Shown here one piece after another: positions 2,210-22,341 of a stretch of DNA of 35,002 nt. A model generated the notes under the pieces. The model saw only the letters and a program-made list of their open reading frames with translations. It searched no databases and was not told the DNA's origin. The position numbers and the translations under genes are program-made. The DNA lies in UHGV virus genome UHGV-0140552; one strand, written 5' to 3'. This DNA is from a virus. Position 1 is the stretch's first letter. Each line of letters opens with the position of its first letter.

Positions 2210-4401
2210 TATGCTTTCTCCTCGGCTTTATTCAGTTCTTTAATGCGCCCATCTTTGATGGAGATGAGTCGGCGGAGCCGGCCAGACAGATAACGTTCAT
2301 GCTGCGTGTCGCCGTTGGCCTGGGCGGCTTTAATGTGAACATCGATCTCACGTGCGATAGGGGAAAACACACCGTTGATTTCGTTCACCGTCACGCCATG
2401 CGCCAGGGTATTAGCAACGCGGCTTAATTTATCGTCAAACTCCTGGCGGAGCCGTGCTGCATCTTCGGCTGATTCGCTGGCGTTCTTCAGGTCAAACTCG
2501 GCCTTGTTCTTCTGGCGGTACTCCAGATTGTCGTAAAGCCCCATAAAGATATCGCCACTGAATCCGAGGCCGGATAACGCTTTTTTGGTCGCATCTGTCA
2601 GTGATTTTTTGGCTGCTTCGCCGTCGCAGGTGATCCCGTATTTACTACCGTAAATGTAGGGTGTACAGCCGTATGCTGTTTCCTCACCTCGTACTCCGTT
2701 CAGGATGTACCAGAGCCGGACAGTCACAACATGGTGCTGTTCGTTGACGGTATTACCATTCCCATCAAGAACCAGCTCCCACGATGCGTTGTTGTCTTTG
2801 CCTTTTACTTGCCGAGTGATCGGCGCGCCAATATCGAAACGCTCTTCAACAATATCCACGCCCCAGCCGATGCCCTTAGGGCCAAACTCACGTGTGGCAA
2901 GCATGGTCATGTAGGTACCGTTGATCGAGGTGCCACCGCCGTTCTGTGTGAAAGCCTTAGTAAACCTTTCGTCGGTTTTAAATACGCGTTTCCAGAGGTC
3001 TAAATTGTCTTCCCCGATGATTGGTTTTCCGACAGCCTGCACAACATCCTCAGCGTTAGGCAGGCTTTCAGCGTGAGCGATTTGTTTTGCTAAACGCTCG
3101 GAATCATCAGCCAGTTTTTCAGCCTTAACGCTTAACTTCTCTTCCGGCTCTGCACCTTCACCAGAGGCATATACGCCATAACCCATATCATTGAGCGTCT
3201 CACGCGCCTGTTTGGCCTGGGTGTCGGTTACAACCGGCTGCTGCGCTTCCACTTTTTCGCCCACGTTTGAGGCGGTATTTTGCGTCGCCTCTGGTTGTTT
3301 AACGGATCCTGTCTCGGTTTCCTCAAAGCGGCCGTTGGCCGCCAGCCATGAATCGATATGGCGGCGCAGGCTGTCAGGGAAATGGTAGGTATCTTTCGCC
3401 GGTACGTTTTGTACCACGCCGAAGATGCTGGCGCGGTCGTATTTGAGTATCTGCGGCGTGGTGTGCAGCGATGCTGACCAGCGTTTAAAATCTTCCCGGT
3501 CATCGGAAATCATCTTCTTAGCGTCCAGAAGGTTTCCGGATAGTACCGGCGCATCAGGCGCCAGCGGGAGAAGGGCGGTAGCGATCTCCTGATCCAGCGT
3601 TGCATAAGTGTGTTTATATCCGCGCTTAGAAATTACCACGGGTGTTTTATCATCGGTGCTGGTGCTGGTGCTGGTGCTGGTGCTGGTGCTGGTGCTGGTG
3701 CTGGTGCTGAGAGCGGTATTTTTATATACGCCGGGGGCCAGTTCGTCGCGCTTGCCCGGATTCTCAAGCCAGCGTTTAACGAACTGAGAGATAGCCGCTT
3801 TGCCCGGCGTCTGGTTTTCAAAGTGGGAGAAAATACCCTGAATAAGATTGTTCAGACCTTCCACATGCATGCTTTGAACCGGGAAGTTATTTTGCAGGGC
3901 ACACAGAACATTAAAGTTAAAGCGATCTTCCTCTTCAAATTCCCCATCGTGGTTTTTCAGATTATCCAGATAATCCACAACCTGAGAATAAAGATGGCCA
4001 TCAATCGCCGCGGTACTAAAAAGCAGGACGGCAGCAAAGCGTTCATCAGGGGAAACGGTCATCAGGTCGATCACTTCATCGTCGGCAGGTAAACCTGCAC
4101 CACTTCCGGAAGCGCTATCCTGCGCAGTAGAAACCCATTTTTCACCGTCAAAAGTATGCTGCTGGGCGAATGACTCATCGAACTGGCCAACGGTCGGCAG
4201 CGGCTGGCCTTCAACGTGTTCCCACAGTTTCGGTTTGAAATAGTTGTCACCATTGGCCGGGTATGATTCCCAGAGTTTGCCGGTCATAATGCTTTCGGCC
4301 ACTTTTTTGTTTGGCGCATCGATGGCGATCGCCAGCTGCACGGCGCCGCAGTCTTTAATCGCCGATTTCTTTGGCTCAAATGAGCCGTTGTAGATGGTCA
4401 T
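2209..4401 (-). CDS. Large multidomain protein (730 aa) with C-terminal Rad52/Sak-type single-strand annealing domain and an internal (Ser-Thr)9 linker
   Basis: Segment GCTPYIYGSKYGITCDGEAAKKSLTDATKKALSGLGFSGDIFMGLYDN matches the Rad52-family signature (K-x-A/S-V/L-TD-x-x-K-K/R-AL-x-x-F/L-G). Start placed at ATG 4399-4401, which has the GAGGAAAGACCA RBS motif; the ORF-track start at 4434 is a GTG without a Shine-Dalgarno. Confidence 0.75.
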   Translation of the reverse strand: MTIYNGSFEPKKSAIKDCGAVQLAIAIDAPNKKVAESIMTGKLWESYPANGDNYFKPKLWEHVEGQPLPTVGQFDESFAQQHTFDGEKWVSTAQDSASGSGAGLPADDEVIDLMTVSPDERFAAVLLFSTAAIDGHLYSQVVDYLDNLKNHDGEFEEEDRFNFNVLCALQNNFPVQSMHVEGLNNLIQGIFSHFENQTPGKAAISQFVKRWLENPGKRDELAPGVYKNTALSTSTSTSTSTSTSTSTSTDDKTPVVISKRGYKHTYATLDQEIATALLPLAPDAPVLSGNLLDAKKMISDDREDFKRWSASLHTTPQILKYDRASIFGVVQNVPAKDTYHFPDSLRRHIDSWLAANGRFEETETGSVKQPEATQNTASNVGEKVEAQQPVVTDTQAKQARETLNDMGYGVYASGEGAEPEEKLSVKAEKLADDSERLAKQIAHAESLPNAEDVVQAVGKPIIGEDNLDLWKRVFKTDERFTKAFTQNGGGTSINGTYMTMLATREFGPKGIGWGVDIVEERFDIGAPITRQVKGKDNNASWELVLDGNGNTVNEQHHVVTVRLWYILNGVRGEETAYGCTPYIYGSKYGITCDGEAAKKSLTDATKKALSGLGFSGDIFMGLYDNLEYRQKNKAEFDLKNASESAEDAARLRQEFDDKLSRVANTLAHGVTVNEINGVFSPIAREIDVHIKAAQANGDTQHERYLSGRLRRLISIKDGRIKELNKAEEKA
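3655..3708. repeat. Perfect hexanucleotide tandem repeat (GGTGCT)x9, in-frame within the 730-aa gene, encoding (ST)9
   Basis: Read directly: nine contiguous GGTGCT units on the plus strand; on the minus coding strand AGCACC gives S-T repeats. Confidence 0.95.
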
Positions 4402-4445
4402 TGGTCTTTCCTCTTGGTTACTGGCGCAGGTCACGCGCCGGTTAA

Positions 4446-4769
4446 TTAAAACGGTACGTCGCTTTCTTCAATTGGAGAGTGATCGATGCACAGCAGCTGC
4501 TGAATCTGGTCTTCAATAACACCCAGCTCCTTCTTTGCTTCGGCAGAGATTTTCTCTTTCTTCGCACGAAGGGCATTAACCTGCATACCAATAATGTCGA
4601 TTGGCTCTAAAGCTGGAATGGCAACCTCTACCGTTTTGGTAGTAACGAGGACATACAGATCAGGGTATTGCTGTGACATGTCACAGGTGAATGAGTGATA
4701 AGACGTTGGTAGATATGGGTTGGTTGTGGCCATAACGTAAATAGTTACGGGGATGGTAAGCGCTTCCAT
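4446..4769 (-). CDS. Hypothetical protein (107 aa), first gene of the leftward early operon; C-terminus ...PIEESDVPF
   Basis: ORF with a strong AAGGAG Shine-Dalgarno 5 nt upstream of the ATG at 4769. No recognisable domain. Confidence 0.7.
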   Translation of the reverse strand: MEALTIPVTIYVMATTNPYLPTSYHSFTCDMSQQYPDLYVLVTTKTVEVAIPALEPIDIIGMQVNALRAKKEKISAEAKKELGVIEDQIQQLLCIDHSPIEESDVPF

Positions 4770-4887
4770 AGCGACTCCTTGATGATATATACTCAGAGCC
4801 GATCAGCGGCTCTGTCGTTGGTCTTTCCTCGCTACAGGGTTGGTCCCCTGTAGCATTCTGGGCGGTTTGGTCACTGTCCCGGGTAAA

Positions 4888-4962
4888 TTAGCCCACTTCG
4901 GTGGGCTTTTTTACGCCTGAAGGTTGCCGGTCTTTCCCGGCTGTCAGGGTGGTCAGCCCCAT
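4888..4962 (-). CDS. Possible leader-peptide ORF (24 aa, MGLTTLTAGKDRQPSGVKKPTEVG) ending inside the terminator hairpin
   Basis: ATG at 4960-4962 is preceded by a perfect copy of the GAGGAAAGACCA initiation motif. The stop codon (4888-4890) sits at the base of the 4890-4907 hairpin. Very short and unverified. Confidence 0.25.
   Translation of the reverse strand: MGLTTLTAGKDRQPSGVKKPTEVG
4890..4912 (+). terminator. Intrinsic-terminator-like hairpin AGCCCAC-TTCG-GTGGGCT followed by TTTTT (plus-strand sense); A-tract on the other side, so possibly bidirectional
   Basis: 7-bp GC-rich stem, TTCG tetraloop, T-run 4908-4912. Located in the ~490-bp noncoding leader between the repressor gene and the early-left genes. 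Confidence 0.55.
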
Positions 4963-5169
4963 TGGTCTTTCCTCGTTACTGCGTGAATGCTTTAAAAAAA
5001 TGCCCGGGGCGCCCGGGCCAAGACTACACACAGCAATTCGCATTCGTTGCGGTCTTTCCCGCATGTCATCGTACTGTCGGCGACCCGAAGAATTCGCGCC
5101 CGTCTTTCCGGACTGTCAGAACTGTTTCTGAACAACTGCCGCGTGGTTAGTGCGTCGTTGATGTGATGT

Positions 5170-5198
5170 AATTTAGATAAATCTAACAATTTGGTCAA
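5170..5198 (-). promoter_or_regulatory. Putative early-left promoter (PL-like): -35 TTGACC, 17-bp spacer, -10 TAAATT, overlapped by an operator
   Basis: Reverse complement of 5170-5198 reads TTGACC-17 nt-TAAATT. The operator palindrome at 5173-5186 overlaps the spacer and -10. Confidence 0.4.
5173..5186. promoter_or_regulatory. Operator-like 14-bp palindrome TTAGATAAATCTAA (OL-like)
   Basis: One of three sites fitting TTAGA-N4-TCTAA. A swapped-arm relative, TCTAACTGATTAGA, lies at 5244-5257. Confidence 0.6.
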
Positions 5199-5263
5199 TG
5201 ATTAAATTAGAGAAAACGAACACAATGGGCGTAAAAAAATGCATCTAACTGATTAGAAAGGGA

Positions 5264-5650
5264 TTATTTTTGTTTGCGGGCTTGCAGTAACTCCTCAAAT
5301 AAACGATTGAAACCGTCTACTTTTTCGCGAAGTTCCGTTAAATGCCGCTCTTTTTCAGATTCTGGGAGTGACGAAAAGAGTTTTAAAAGCTCTGTTTCTC
5401 GTTCATCTAATGGCGGCGGGGTGTCTACCGGGGTTCCCGGAGTGGCGGCTTCATCGCCGTAAAGTATCCAGGTAGGGCTGCATTGAAGTGCGTTACTTAA
5501 AGCGAAAAGGTTTTTTCCGCCAGGCTCACTATCACCGGTCTCCCACTGGGAGATAGTGACGTGCGCGACGTTAACCAGCTTCGCTAAAGCGCGCTGAGTA
5601 AGTTTGAGATCTTTTCTACGCGCTCTGATGCGCTCACCTGGCATTGTCAT
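5264..5650 (-). CDS. Phage repressor, HTH XRE-family (128 aa), RacR/CI-like, no S24 peptidase domain
   Basis: N-terminal HTH (LTQRALAKLVNVAHVTISQWETG). Divergent from a cro-like gene, with palindromic operators in the 80-bp intergenic region. Too short to carry a LexA-like autocleavage domain. Confidence 0.85.
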   Translation of the reverse strand: MTMPGERIRARRKDLKLTQRALAKLVNVAHVTISQWETGDSEPGGKNLFALSNALQCSPTWILYGDEAATPGTPVDTPPPLDERETELLKLFSSLPESEKERHLTELREKVDGFNRLFEELLQARKQK

Positions 5651-5987: not shown

Positions 5988-6434
5988 GTGGAATACCTCG
6001 AAGAACTTAAACGAGAGATCTTTAACTGGGCAGCGGAAAGCGGGCAGGAGCTGGTTGCTATCGAGATAAGCCGCATGTGGTTTCGTCTTGGTGGTAATAC
6101 CGGTTCGCTGAAGCTGCACCAGATCGAAGATGCAGATGGAAACGCCGACTGGCGGGCAATCAACAACAACCGCCAACAAATTTTTCGTTGGTTGCGAGGC
6201 GAGACCAAAGCCGCGAGAGCCAAAACTCTGGCGCTGGTCAAAGCGATGGAAGCGGCGCTGCCGGCAGAACGTTACGCGCGCTTGGGTATGTCCACTCAGT
6301 ATTTAATTTGTGTGGCCATTCGCGAGTTTGCCGCGGCGATTATCGCGTTGTTACTCGACGCCAGAGACGGGCCGCAGCAAGTCGCCAGAGCATTGCAAGC
6401 TATGCGAGAAACACAGCGCCTGACCAGCGTTTAA
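5988..6434 (+). CDS. YdaT-like / CII-like regulatory protein (148 aa), GTG start
   Basis: Follows the cro-like gene. AGGAG Shine-Dalgarno 9 nt upstream of GTG 5988. The QQIFRWLRGETK segment is reminiscent of the YdaT family (recalled from memory, unverified). Confidence 0.55.
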   Translation: MEYLEELKREIFNWAAESGQELVAIEISRMWFRLGGNTGSLKLHQIEDADGNADWRAINNNRQQIFRWLRGETKAARAKTLALVKAMEAALPAERYARLGMSTQYLICVAIREFAAAIIALLLDARDGPQQVARALQAMRETQRLTSV

Positions 6435-6454
6435 CCTGTACCGAGGAAAGACCA

Positions 6455-6676
6455 ATGAGAACACAAGACCGCATCACCTGGCGGAACGGGTTTCGCCGGA
6501 ACGGGGTACAAGTCCCGATAGAAGATATCGAATTGATTTTCGAGGAACGTCGCGCTGCTGCGCTGACAATCTGGGAACGCTACGAGCTGCGCAAAGCAGA
6601 CCTGCAGGAAGCGGGACTCACCCAGAAAGAATATGAAATCGCCTGCCGCCAGCTGGCTGACTCGCTGGGGATCTGA
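6455..6676 (+). CDS. Hypothetical small protein (73 aa)
   Basis: ATG 6455 is preceded by the conserved GAGGAAAGACCA motif. The longer ORF-track call (6188-6676) overlaps the YdaT-like gene and lacks an RBS. Confidence 0.6.
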   Translation: MRTQDRITWRNGFRRNGVQVPIEDIELIFEERRAAALTIWERYELRKADLQEAGLTQKEYEIACRQLADSLGI

Positions 6677-9056: not shown

Positions 9057-9094
9057 CCGCGCCTGACCAGCGCGATTTAACTGAGGAAAGACCA

Positions 9095-9763
9095 ATGACC
9101 ACGAATTTAAATTACCCAAAACCAGTAAAACCGGATGATGGCTGCAACTGGCTCCCCGTTATTCTCTGGCGCATGAATGCCGGTGCGCGCGCCCGTAGCC
9201 GTTCCGTGTTCGTAGCGGCGCCACGTCCGGCCCCTGTACCAGGCATCACCCCGCAAAAACCGATTAAGCGAGAAATTATCGCCCCTACGGTTTCCGGCCG
9301 CAGGCGTAAAACCCACATCGGCACCGTGATTTATTCCAGAGGTGAAAAAAGCGTTCGCCTTAGCGAAGGCGCGACTGTCTGGTCTGCTGGCTCAAATGAG
9401 CATTTCGATAAAAAAACGGGCCAGCGCGTCGGCAGTATTGGCCGTCACCGTCTGGTGCTGGAGAGTATCCGCCCATTGCAGGCCAGCGACGCACAACAGG
9501 ACGCCGGGAGCGTCACCGCGCAGCAACTGGTAGCCGTGATGAAAGGCAAAACGCTTTCTTACCAGGGCATTCTGGCATTAATCCAGAAGCACTATCCCGA
9601 TTGTCAGGTGACGACTAAAGAACTTCACGATCGCGTGTTCGGCATGTTCATGTCGAATTACGTGGGTATCACCCGTCACGACGATATGCCGGTGGTTCAC
9701 TTCACGCTTAACAGCGTCGATCCCCGTTATTACATCGAGTCAGCGAAGAACAAGAGGGCATAA
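9095..9763 (+). CDS. Hypothetical protein (222 aa)
   Basis: ORF preceded by the GAGGAAAGACCA motif. Coding-like composition, no recognisable domain. Confidence 0.65.
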   Translation: MTTNLNYPKPVKPDDGCNWLPVILWRMNAGARARSRSVFVAAPRPAPVPGITPQKPIKREIIAPTVSGRRRKTHIGTVIYSRGEKSVRLSEGATVWSAGSNEHFDKKTGQRVGSIGRHRLVLESIRPLQASDAQQDAGSVTAQQLVAVMKGKTLSYQGILALIQKHYPDCQVTTKELHDRVFGMFMSNYVGITRHDDMPVVHFTLNSVDPRYYIESAKNKRA

Positions 9764-21889: not shown

Positions 21890-22341
21890 TGATGATCCGT
21901 AATGCAACCGCCGGTGATATTCCGGCGCTTATCGAACTGGGAACCCGGATGTACCTGGAATCCCGCTATTCCGAAAACTCACCCTTTGACGCGGACAAAT
22001 GCGCGGAACTGGCTGAGAGCCTGATTTATTCCCCCGCCGGATGCGTGCTGGTGGCAGAGAAAAACGGCCTGGTGATTGGCTGGCTCGGCGGCGGCATCGC
22101 GGAGCAGTTTTTTTCCCGCCAGTTGATGGCGTTTGAATATGGCCTGTTCGTCGCTCCGGAGTACCGGGGCGGCAGCGCGGGCCCACGGCTGGCCCGTGCA
22201 TTTATCGAATGGTCGAAAGAACACGGCGCCGCAGTGATCAACATGGGGATCACCACGGGCGTCCATGCCGAACGTACTGGCCAGCTTTATTCCCGCCTCG
22301 GTCTGCAACGTACCGGGCTGCTTTATTCGATGGAGGTTTAA
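21889..22341 (+). CDS. GNAT-family N-acetyltransferase (150 aa) embedded in the virion gene block
   Basis: Acetyl-CoA-binding-type motif FVAPEYRGGSAGPRLARAF. TAATG overlap with the tail tube B gene. Confidence 0.75.
   Translation: MMIRNATAGDIPALIELGTRMYLESRYSENSPFDADKCAELAESLIYSPAGCVLVAEKNGLVIGWLGGGIAEQFFSRQLMAFEYGLFVAPEYRGGSAGPRLARAFIEWSKEHGAAVINMGITTGVHAERTGQLYSRLGLQRTGLLYSMEV

Follow-up and report, generated by a model that had tools for sequence, protein, structure and literature searches.

In lambdoid prophages other than lambda, kil and the genes for recombination and excision belong to the early-left operons, whose silencing and later activation without N are poorly understood. In enterobacteria, the Hfq small RNA (sRNA) RprA is induced by the Rcs and Cpx systems. 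In the Rac prophage of E. coli K-12, kilS (b4833) is annotated upstream of kilR; its product, KilS, was found by RIL-seq on Hfq, verified by northern blot and described as derived from a 5′ untranslated region (Bar et al. 2021, PMC8175672). Moreover, IsrB-1 and IsrB-2 are sRNAs of the Salmonella prophages Gifsy-2 and Gifsy-1, respectively (Padalon-Brauch et al. 2008, PMC2330248). Here, a gap of 494 bp that separates the repressor gene from the first of the early-left genes in the virus genome UHGV-0140552 was analysed (positions 4770-5263 of a stretch of 35,002 nucleotides, hereafter the window, which is a lambdoid prophage). The reading somewhat favoured by the sequence comparisons is that this gap represents, in a lambdoid prophage of the Rac/Gifsy kind, the OL/pL control region of the early-left operon together with its transcribed leader, and that it encodes two convergent small RNAs: a rightward antisense sRNA of about 115 nt (4798-4913, plus strand) and a leftward leader RNA of about 170 nt (4994-5163, minus strand, counted from the inferred start and ending with the U-run). 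The element belongs with prophage early-left sRNAs such as KilS and IsrB, as a variant of them. Two of its features appear undescribed: the RprA/KilS core is widespread behind pL, and start motifs co-vary in pairs with antisense sRNAs.

To begin with the rightward RNA, its existence was considered highly probable. It was composed of a 5′ helix GAUCAGCG/CGUUGGUC (4801-4808/4816-4823), a single-stranded UUUCCUC (4824-4830), the hairpins P1 (4831-4854, loop UUGGUC) and P2 (4858-4885, loop UUUGGUCA), and a terminator identified by terminator scan, AGCCCAC-UUCG-GUGGGCU followed by U6 (4890-4913). A preliminary description of the gap had already pointed to perfect hairpins at 4796-4812 and 4831-4854 and to a plus-strand intrinsic terminator, and all three were found, the stem of the terminator spanning 4890-4907 and the T-run 4907-4913. 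As a source of relatives, a DNA scan of viral contigs with the 17-nt core of the leftward RNA (see below) yielded far more than a protein search of genome contigs with the 107-aa product of the first early-left gene, which gave one locus. Across 21 distinct relatives, 99.3% of the cells in the three helices (5′ helix, P1 and P2) were paired and 13 pairs showed compensatory double changes, a level of pairing reached by none of 500 shuffles and by no slid control (51% at most). Moreover, G.U pairs accounted for 108 of the 559 paired cells, and since these would be A.C mismatches on the other strand, such a proportion of about one fifth assigns the structure to the plus strand. In particular, the 5′ helix kept the consensus GAUCAGYR/YRUUGGUC through three compensatory combinations, and the terminator stem also covaried (GCCCAC/GUGGGC vs. 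GGCCCGC/GCGGGCC). The folding z-scores of 4790-4913 were −5.8 for the plus strand and −6.1 for the minus strand, compared to −2.3 for the pL leader.

Upstream of this RNA, a −10 region TGATATATACT was located at 4783-4793 (plus strand), whose hexamer TATACT (4788-4793) appeared as TATA[AC]T at a fixed distance in 24 of 24 relatives, and the distant relatives L107, L123 and L125 carried a perfect extended −10, TGATATAAT. The possible extended −10 TGATATATA that had been proposed earlier is present, but at 4783-4791 instead of 4773-4781. As there is no plus-strand gene upstream (to the left), the terminator at 4890-4913 can end only an antisense RNA; leftward transcripts, too, may be weakly terminated by this hairpin. 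Thus, the suggestion of a plus-strand small RNA ending at 4890-4912 was backed by the covariation of the helices, the G.U pairs that fit only the plus strand and the conserved −10. Furthermore, a covariance model built from the sRNA alignment detected diverged copies in seven further loci, and the RNA was convergent with the module containing the 17-mer in all six loci in which the strand was checked.

Among described RNAs, IsrB is the nearest analogue suggested by the sequence, not a family to which the rightward RNA is assigned. Both are antisense RNAs inside an early-left operon, with flanking genes arranged as <- -> <- and a Rho-independent terminator, IsrB being about 90 nt long, and the hairpin with a CUUUGGUC loop followed by the GCCCnCUUCGGnGGGC terminator was the feature likened to that of IsrB. 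In contrast, IsrB has no anti-motif 5′ part as described below for the window RNA and sits before recE rather than in the pL leader, and the covariance model did not find IsrB in Gifsy-2 at E ≤ 1.

The function proposed for the rightward RNA derives from the repeats of the region. The preliminary description had listed six of them, GGTCTTTCC at 4403, 4820, 4929, 4964 and 5051 and the variant CGTCTTTCC at 5101, all of which were found; however, they do not constitute a single class, as three lie in hairpin loops of the leftward leader and the other three (4403, 4964 and 4820) belong to a start motif, GAGGAAAGACCAA(U/C)G. Further exact 9-mers, missed at that stage, were present at 1247(+), 6445(−) and 9085(−), all in sense orientation directly before gene starts. 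Overall, the exact 9-mer GGTCTTTCC occurred nine times in 35 kb, with about 0.3 copies expected, and 17 matches were obtained when one mismatch was allowed, compared to 6.5 ± 2.4 in shuffles (none of 100 reached 17). The copy at 4403, outside the leader, is part of the genuine start site from which the RecE-like exonuclease is translated (GAGGAAAGACCAATG, 4399-4413, minus strand; ATG at 4401-4399). On the other hand, the leader contains two pseudo start sites on the minus strand: GAGGAAAGACCAAUG (4960-4974, copy 4964), which provides the ‘RBS’ (ribosome-binding site) of a 24-codon open reading frame (ORF) whose ATG is not conserved, and GAGGAAAGACCAACG (4816-4830, copy 4820), which is the template of the anti-motif of the sRNA. 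The same 15-mer constitutes the ribosome-binding region of the genes for the exonuclease (4401), p73 (6455) and p222 (9095), and that of the excisionase gene (1246) has one base less, while the 107-aa and CII-like genes have ordinary, different start sites. Moreover, the motif was retained in homologues at 36-50% amino acid identity (36-41% for those of the exonuclease). A longer conserved cassette, CCTGACCAGCG-N-TTTAAC-N-GAGGAAAGACCAATG, was also observed before p73 and p222 (6420-6457 and 9060-9097, plus strand) and, in relatives, before the exonuclease gene, with fragments of it (CTGACCA) inside the leader units.

In the rightward RNA, complementarity to GAGGAAAGACCAAUG resides in the 5′ hairpin and linker (CGUUGGUCUUUCCUC) and also in the loops of P1 and P2 (UUGGUC). 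The predicted duplexes between the sRNA and the start sites of the four genes comprised 17-19 bp with energies from −29 to −31 kcal/mol, compared to −12 to −26 kcal/mol for other start sites; this prediction taken alone is weak evidence because CGUUGGUCUUUCCUC is the antisense of one copy of the motif. The concerted change between phage groups is more informative. Four groups used four start motifs (GAGGAAAGACC, GAGGCATGACC, GAGCATAACC and GAGTTTTGACC), each present in two to seven copies and only in its own group, so that the matrix of motifs against groups was diagonal. In particular, GAGGCATGACC appeared in L015, GAGCATAACC in L043 and L065 (L043-type motif and sRNA: GAGCAUAACC) and GAGTTTTGACC in L119 and L120, with three or four copies of each in these diverged groups, about half of them directly before genes. 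In every group, the antisense sRNA carried the exact complement of the motif at the same place. Phages P1 and P7 (c4 antisense RNA) and P4 (CI RNA) encode small RNAs acting on short repeated complementary sites within an early operon, in which the complementary pair differs between related phages and thereby provides specificity; these RNAs are processed from the target strand, c4 controlling an antirepressor and CI causing premature termination. Likewise, the recognition sequence of the sRNA and its multiple putative target sites changed together between related phages in the window family, with four matching pairs in four groups. However, the window RNA is convergently encoded and its sites are the translation start regions of several unlinked genes, and no sequence relation to c4 or CI is expected. 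A further parallel is given by the start-associated sequences of Cluster K mycobacteriophages, asymmetric motifs of about 13 nt that immediately precede the start codon in some of the genes, are always directed with transcription and are specific to a phage group. They resemble the window motif in their placement, but differ in host phylum and sequence, and we know of no cognate antisense RNA described for them.

The simplest reading of this concerted change is that the sRNA pairs with the start sites, and an sRNA regulon directed against start sites was, on the sequence, given a chance just short of even. The main alternative is that the motif is bound by a protein, a translational repressor or activator of the RegA/CsrA kind, with the leader copies acting as decoys or autoregulatory sites and the rightward RNA acting only in cis, through antisense or interference effects on the 107-aa gene and the pL transcript. 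Such a protein would account for a motif conserved beyond the need of a Shine-Dalgarno sequence at 36-50% protein identity, for copies that are always in sense relative to transcription and, by co-evolution, for motifs specific to each group. Nevertheless, it was judged improbable, given that no candidate RNA-binding protein was found among the neighbouring proteins scanned, that the structure of the sRNA is conserved and that, in four groups, the motif complement falls exactly on its 5′ helix and linker, which an antisense RNA acting only in cis would not need. The motif copies and leader units could also be scars of module exchange left by the insertion and deletion of accessory genes, that is, a recombination hot spot with no regulatory role. 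The relatives L007, L021, L031, L039 and L129 do carry inserted genes at unit boundaries, the CCTGACCAGCG...GAGGAAAGACCAATG cassette recurs at gene boundaries and the intergenic length of the relatives varies from 494 to 1461 bp. However, the pseudo start site at 4816-4830 was kept in every relative and changed in concert with the true start sites in the four groups, and the hairpins showed compensatory substitutions, making mere scars very unlikely; the concerted evolution of the leader copy and the true start sites favours a relationship in trans over them.

Regarding the leftward RNA, the OL operators and the pL promoter lie inside the gap, which had previously been overlooked, and their assignment was considered very probable. 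The palindrome TTAGAnAAnTCTAA had three perfect copies in 35 kb, at 5173, 5653 and 5703, a count reached by none of 100 shuffles; the latter two are situated between cI and cro, flanking their divergent promoters. The copy at 5173 corresponds to the OL1 operator TTAGATAAATCTAA (5173-5186), which overlaps the spacer and the −10 of pL, and a weaker operator-like site with two mismatches was found at 5207-5220 (possibly OL2). The pL promoter itself (5170-5198, minus strand; promoter scan) consisted of a −35 TTGACC (5198-5193), a 17-nt spacer and a −10 TAAATT (5175-5170). In an alignment of 15 relatives with at least four repressor/operator (immunity) types, the sequences were unrelated up to the −10 and near-invariant directly downstream. 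From this near-invariance across immunity types, transcription is inferred to start at about 5163 (5162-5164), and the leader must have been selected as RNA or as transcribed DNA.

About 150-170 nt from this start, the terminator tL0 (GCCCGGG-CGC-CCCGGGC, then A and U7; 4994-5018, minus strand; terminator scan) was found, with a 7-bp all-GC hairpin at 5018-5002. In the preliminary description this hairpin had been noted as a GC palindrome at 5003-5019, one base away from its actual position (5002-5018), and it had been missed that, together with the plus-strand A7, it forms a strong minus-strand intrinsic terminator. A terminator occupied the same position in all relatives, although with different stems. 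Directly before it lies the 17-nt core UUGCUGUGUGUAGUCUU (5020-5036, minus strand), 16 bases of which are identical in E. coli RprA and KilS, the rprA sequence having been confirmed from NC_000913. RprA was the only notable Rfam match on the leftward strand, no other family matching these module elements. The conserved 3′ core of RprA (UUGCUGUGUGUAGUCUUUGCCC) with its terminator and U-run was present in the leader, with 21 consecutive identical nucleotides (CGAAUUGCUGUGUGUAGUCUU). Thus, the leader resembles the 3′ part of RprA over about 70 nt, which comprises a hairpin with a GGAAA loop where RprA has its seed hairpin, followed by CAACGAAU, the 21-nt identical core, the terminator and the U-run. 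However, two parts of RprA, the long 5′ stem-loop and the C/U-rich seed, are missing from the leader (whose loop is GAAAGA), which has a 4-nt insertion and is driven by pL within a prophage, unlike the chromosomal RprA gene with its RcsB/CpxR-dependent promoter. The predicted pairing with the rpoS leader via AACGAAU reached −22 kcal/mol, compared to −28 kcal/mol for RprA, and was equalled by 2% of shuffles, so that an RprA-like action on host targets such as rpoS, as modelled, seems unlikely. A link between RprA and phage RNAs was searched for in the literature and none was found.

KilS has a comparable genomic setting. Both modules lie on the leftward strand of a Rac-type early-left operon downstream of the repressor gene, KilS being placed before kil/recE genes, and both present the core AACGA(C)AUUGCUGUGUGUAGUC followed by an intrinsic terminator, with 16 nt identical to K-12 kilS. 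In contrast, the window has neither the KilS 5′ hairpin GGGAGUGCGCCUCC nor a KilS-type promoter of its own directly upstream, its terminator stem is unrelated, and the module lies 125 nt from the pL start, while KilS lies about 1.1 kb from the pL of Rac. The relatives L001 and L006-L009 do have the KilS 5′ hairpin (GGnGGAGUGCGCnUCC) and their own promoter; the window copy is a compact variant in which the core is joined directly to the leader hairpin B described below. The leftward RNA would probably end at tL0 and accumulate as an sRNA.

The module formed by the core and the terminator was detected in at least 120 IMG/VR contigs, with upstream sequences belonging to many unrelated classes. 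Among the matches listed, a GC-rich hairpin with a T-run followed the 17-mer in 90 of 93 unique contexts, and a same-strand CI/XRE repressor ORF, forming one cluster, ended 227-984 nt upstream in at least 83 of 122 loci. This position of the repressor gene implies that the module is typically the first terminator after pL. Nine relatives from phage, E. coli and Raoultella records also showed sub-threshold RprA matches (35.7-50.2 bits), whose position and strand agreed with those in the window. The module was also observed, unannotated, in virulent N4-like Erwinia phages and in jumbo Erwinia/Dickeya phages (KF806588, Ea9-2, 22137-22180; KX098389; MZ443776; MH460460), and in these phages it cannot be a pL leader. 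Moreover, within the 40 nt preceding the 17-mer, CACAAC was the most enriched hexamer, being present in 18 of the 79 unique contexts among the matches listed, the loci including L013, L024, L036, L042, L075, L103, L107 and L112. As CACAACA is the consensus target of the R1 seed of GcvB that is used by AgvB (PMC4104026), some members of the module may, by analogy, be anti-GcvB RNAs. The sRNAs AgvB and AsxR of enterohaemorrhagic E. coli prophages also combine a conserved 3′ module with variable 5′ parts and form convergent pairs (Tree et al. 2014, PMC4104026), and StxS (PMC7547250) is likewise a short terminated transcript of a phage promoter controlled by antitermination that acts as an sRNA. 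However, those RNAs are encoded at the accessory-gene insertion site of PR′ and their conserved module, a 3′ region of about 42 nt, is different. Membership of the AgvB/AsxR family (RF02702) was rejected, as the score was 18.7 bits against a gathering score of 56 and came mostly from the terminator, and none of 13 sampled loci bearing the module reached the gathering score.

The leader between the pL start and tL0 was also structured. Its 5′ stem-loop (AACGAC/GUUGUU, 5132-5158, minus strand) was supported by the consensus fold of 12 leaders and by a change from G.U to A-U. The start of the pL leader of Gifsy-2 (L133, 6670-6864, minus strand) is homologous to this module (CATCGACAAC...CGTTGTCAGG...AAAACGTTCCGCTGGCCGGCG), but Gifsy-2 has neither the 17-mer nor the GGAAAGACC motif system. 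Further downstream on the same strand, the remaining three repeats form the loops of hairpin C (GUCCG-GAAAGA-CGGGC, 5098-5113, copy 5101), hairpin B (UGCGG-GAAAGA-CCGCA, 5048-5063, copy 5051), which aligns to the RprA seed hairpin in the Rfam comparison, and, beyond tL0, hairpin A (GCCGG-GAAAGA-CCGGC, 4926-4941, copy 4929). All three have stems of 4-5 bp around GAAAGA, a G-C closing pair and UGACA just before, and compensatory stem substitutions were found across loci while the loop remained constant and the G.U pairs fitted only a minus-sense RNA. In particular, the stem of hairpin C varied as CCG/CGG, CUG/CAG and CCCG/CGGG, with a U.G pair that fits the minus-sense RNA only, and that of hairpin B as GCGG/CCGC, GAGG/CUUC and GCGG/CUGC with G.U. 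Between hairpins C and B, a middle hairpin (UCGG-GUCG-CCGA, 5077-5088, minus strand) showed two compensatory pairs, and a hairpin X (GGGG-CUGACCA-CCC, 4947-4960, minus strand) had a stem that covaries in relatives (GGGC/GCCC, GAGC/GCUC), as judged by eye, with no statistics. A role of the repeats as DNA-level binding sites is unlikely, as all copies are oriented with transcription and G.U pairs are preserved in the stems on one strand only. The idea that the GAAAGA loops are decoys for the antisense sRNA was weakened, as the hairpin persists where start motif and sRNA differ. A long-range pairing between the 5′ leader and the 17-mer was also rejected, given that it reached −20 kcal/mol in the window but only −10.5 kcal/mol in the L006 type, and no consistent partner of the 17-mer was found across classes.

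The GAAAGA hairpins may instead be antitermination sites comparable to nut or put: if a protein of phage or host origin, or the polymerase itself, recognised hairpins C, B and A in the nascent RNA, transcription could pass tL0 and the second terminator, the terminated RNA being a by-product. HK022 put consists of two stem-loops of about 70 nt directly after the promoter, and the window hairpins resemble lambda nutL/boxB-N and HK022 putL in their position just after pL and before the first terminator, in their purine-rich loops and in their covarying stems. Moreover, hairpin C was fixed at +51 to +66 in every relative, including the groups with other start motifs and the leaders interrupted by accessory genes behind it; its purine-rich loop is invariant and closed by a G-C pair. 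Both terminators have a hairpin before them, a strong terminator has to be overcome for the early-left genes to be expressed, and no gene lies between pL and tL0. On the other hand, no N-like or other antiterminator family was matched by the ten neighbouring proteins scanned, including that of the first gene downstream of pL, and neither boxA nor a counterpart of nutR was found in the window, with no such hairpin in the pR operon. The loop has 6 nt, unlike the 5-nt GNRA-like loop of boxB, there is no sequence similarity to HK022 putL (the interval between pL and nun was compared, giving nothing beyond chance matches of 9-10 nt), and the distant relatives L107, L123 and L125 keep tL0 and hairpin A without hairpins B and C. 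The protein p73 was considered as an N-like arginine-rich protein and discarded: its N-terminal motif DRITWRNGW is not conserved as an arginine-rich motif, the protein had no Pfam hit, and its co-occurrence with the hairpins is uninformative because the whole phage group is related. Altogether, antitermination was considered unlikely, although somewhat less so than the motif-binding protein.

A leader-peptide attenuator, in which termination would depend on ribosomes translating the 24-codon ORF into the terminator stem, had also been proposed. The ORF does exist on the minus strand (ATG at 4962-4960, stop at 4890-4888), with a perfect RBS and its stop codon at the foot of the 4890-4907 hairpin, thus reaching the terminator stem. 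However, the start codon was ACG, AAG, GTG or absent in close relatives and insertions and deletions shifted the frame, which indicates that the ORF is not a gene, and it had no PHROG family match. Furthermore, the hairpin it meets has its U-run on the other strand and the ORF is located downstream, not upstream, of the main leftward terminator tL0. Such an attenuator was therefore regarded as hardly credible.

Several observations weigh against the reading of the gap as a source of two regulatory RNAs. The complement of a repeated motif fits all of its copies by construction, and a decoy for a protein binding the start sites predicts the same concerted change. Part of the seed, UUGGUC, is taken up by a conserved helix. 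No −35 could be recognised in the window for the rightward promoter, which was not called by the promoter scan. Both Rfam matches remained below their thresholds: the best match of the rightward RNA was isrB (RF01386) with 28.7 bits against a gathering score of 35, the diverged member in L120 reaching 28.1 bits, and that of the last ~100 nt of the leader (4992-5093) to RprA (RF00034) was 41.6 bits against a gathering score of 70. In addition, without a KilS-type 5′ hairpin or a leftward promoter of its own, the leftward RNA would be made only when pL fires, and the persistence of the GAAAGA hairpins in groups with a different start motif is not explained by the sRNA model.

If the two-RNA reading holds, the following sequence of events would be expected. 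When the repressor leaves OL, the pL transcript would start at about 5163 and its leader would fold into the 5′ stem-loop and three further hairpins, two of them with GAAAGA loops. Most transcripts would then stop at tL0 (5018-5002 and U7), releasing an RNA of about 170 nt. In its 3′ part (hairpin, AACGAAU, core AUUGCUGUGUGUAGUC and terminator), this RNA belongs to the same family as the Hfq sRNAs KilS of Rac and RprA of the host, and it would presumably depend on Hfq. The module would thereby serve both as an attenuator of the early-left operon and as an sRNA gene. In the lysogen, the antisense sRNA of about 115 nt, made constitutively from its own promoter (−10 at 4788-4793) and ending at 4913, would pair in vivo with the start sites of xis, exo, p73 and p222 and, if the presumed direction of regulation is right, repress the translation of leaky early transcripts. 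On induction, convergent transcription from pL and the motif copies of the leader would remove or titrate it. The joint reading, a so far undescribed post-transcriptional ‘address code’ in Rac/Gifsy-type prophages together with the RprA 3′ domain as a mobile module, was regarded as rather doubtful. If true, the group-specific motif would mark a subset of early genes, the leader sRNA would silence this regulon and the pseudo start sites would act as a decoy dependent on induction. As for the mobile module, hundreds of phages would use the RprA core and terminator as the first terminator after pL, each obtaining an RNA of the Hfq type that is abundant, made early and specific to the phage in its 5′ part.

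The terminator/sRNA module common to RprA, KilS and at least 120 phage contigs, which was unannotated in the annotated records examined, ties a core host stress sRNA to phage leaders, and the co-variation of the recognition sequence of the antisense sRNA with the start motif predicts an RNA-based control of lysogeny with specificity between phages. The GAAAGA hairpin conserved at +50 of pL represents a third testable lead. Moreover, parts of the leader were carried by about 450 of 5,426 complete E. coli genomes, so that any function would be widespread.

Regarding the surrounding genes, those for the integrase (1-1017), the excisionase (Xis, 1004-1246), a Mu Gam-like protein, the RecE-like exonuclease (2212-4401) and an acidic protein of 107 aa (4449-4769) are directed leftward. 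The last of these, the first gene downstream of pL, belongs to phrog_2479, with no assigned function. The CI-type HTH repressor of 128 aa is encoded on the minus strand at 5267-5650, and the Cro-like, YdaT/CII-like, p73, O-like and DnaB genes are directed rightward.

Finally, some minor observations were made in the relatives and in the window. Accessory genes were inserted at fixed points of the leader in L007 (2534-2758), L129, L031, L039 and L021, just after the 5′ stem-loop or hairpin C, one example being a 74-aa hypothetical protein of E. coli CFSAN061769; the leader is thus a hot spot of gene insertion. Between hairpin B and the KilS-like element, an apparently structured GC-rich RNA of about 300-350 nt was present in L006 (1891-2260), L008 (1899-2270) and L001 (3428-3750), on the minus strand, with a tRNA-like T-arm and acceptor end (GGTTCGATTCCGGGCGCCCA) and no Rfam family match; the same T-arm-like sequence appeared 5′ of the 17-mer in L021, L070 and L078. 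The two closest complete phages, L001 and L130, were deposited as the Stenotrophomonas phages BUCT708 and BUCT709 (OM816834 and OM816835). This host label looks doubtful, as their closest relatives here were E. coli and Raoultella prophages and the window, with about 87% identity over the entire early region. Furthermore, a Ser-Thr run of about nine repeats (STSTSTSTSTSTSTSTST), encoded by a hexanucleotide tandem repeat, was found in the RecE-like gene (3640-3700, minus strand); this run may form a flexible linker or vary in length.

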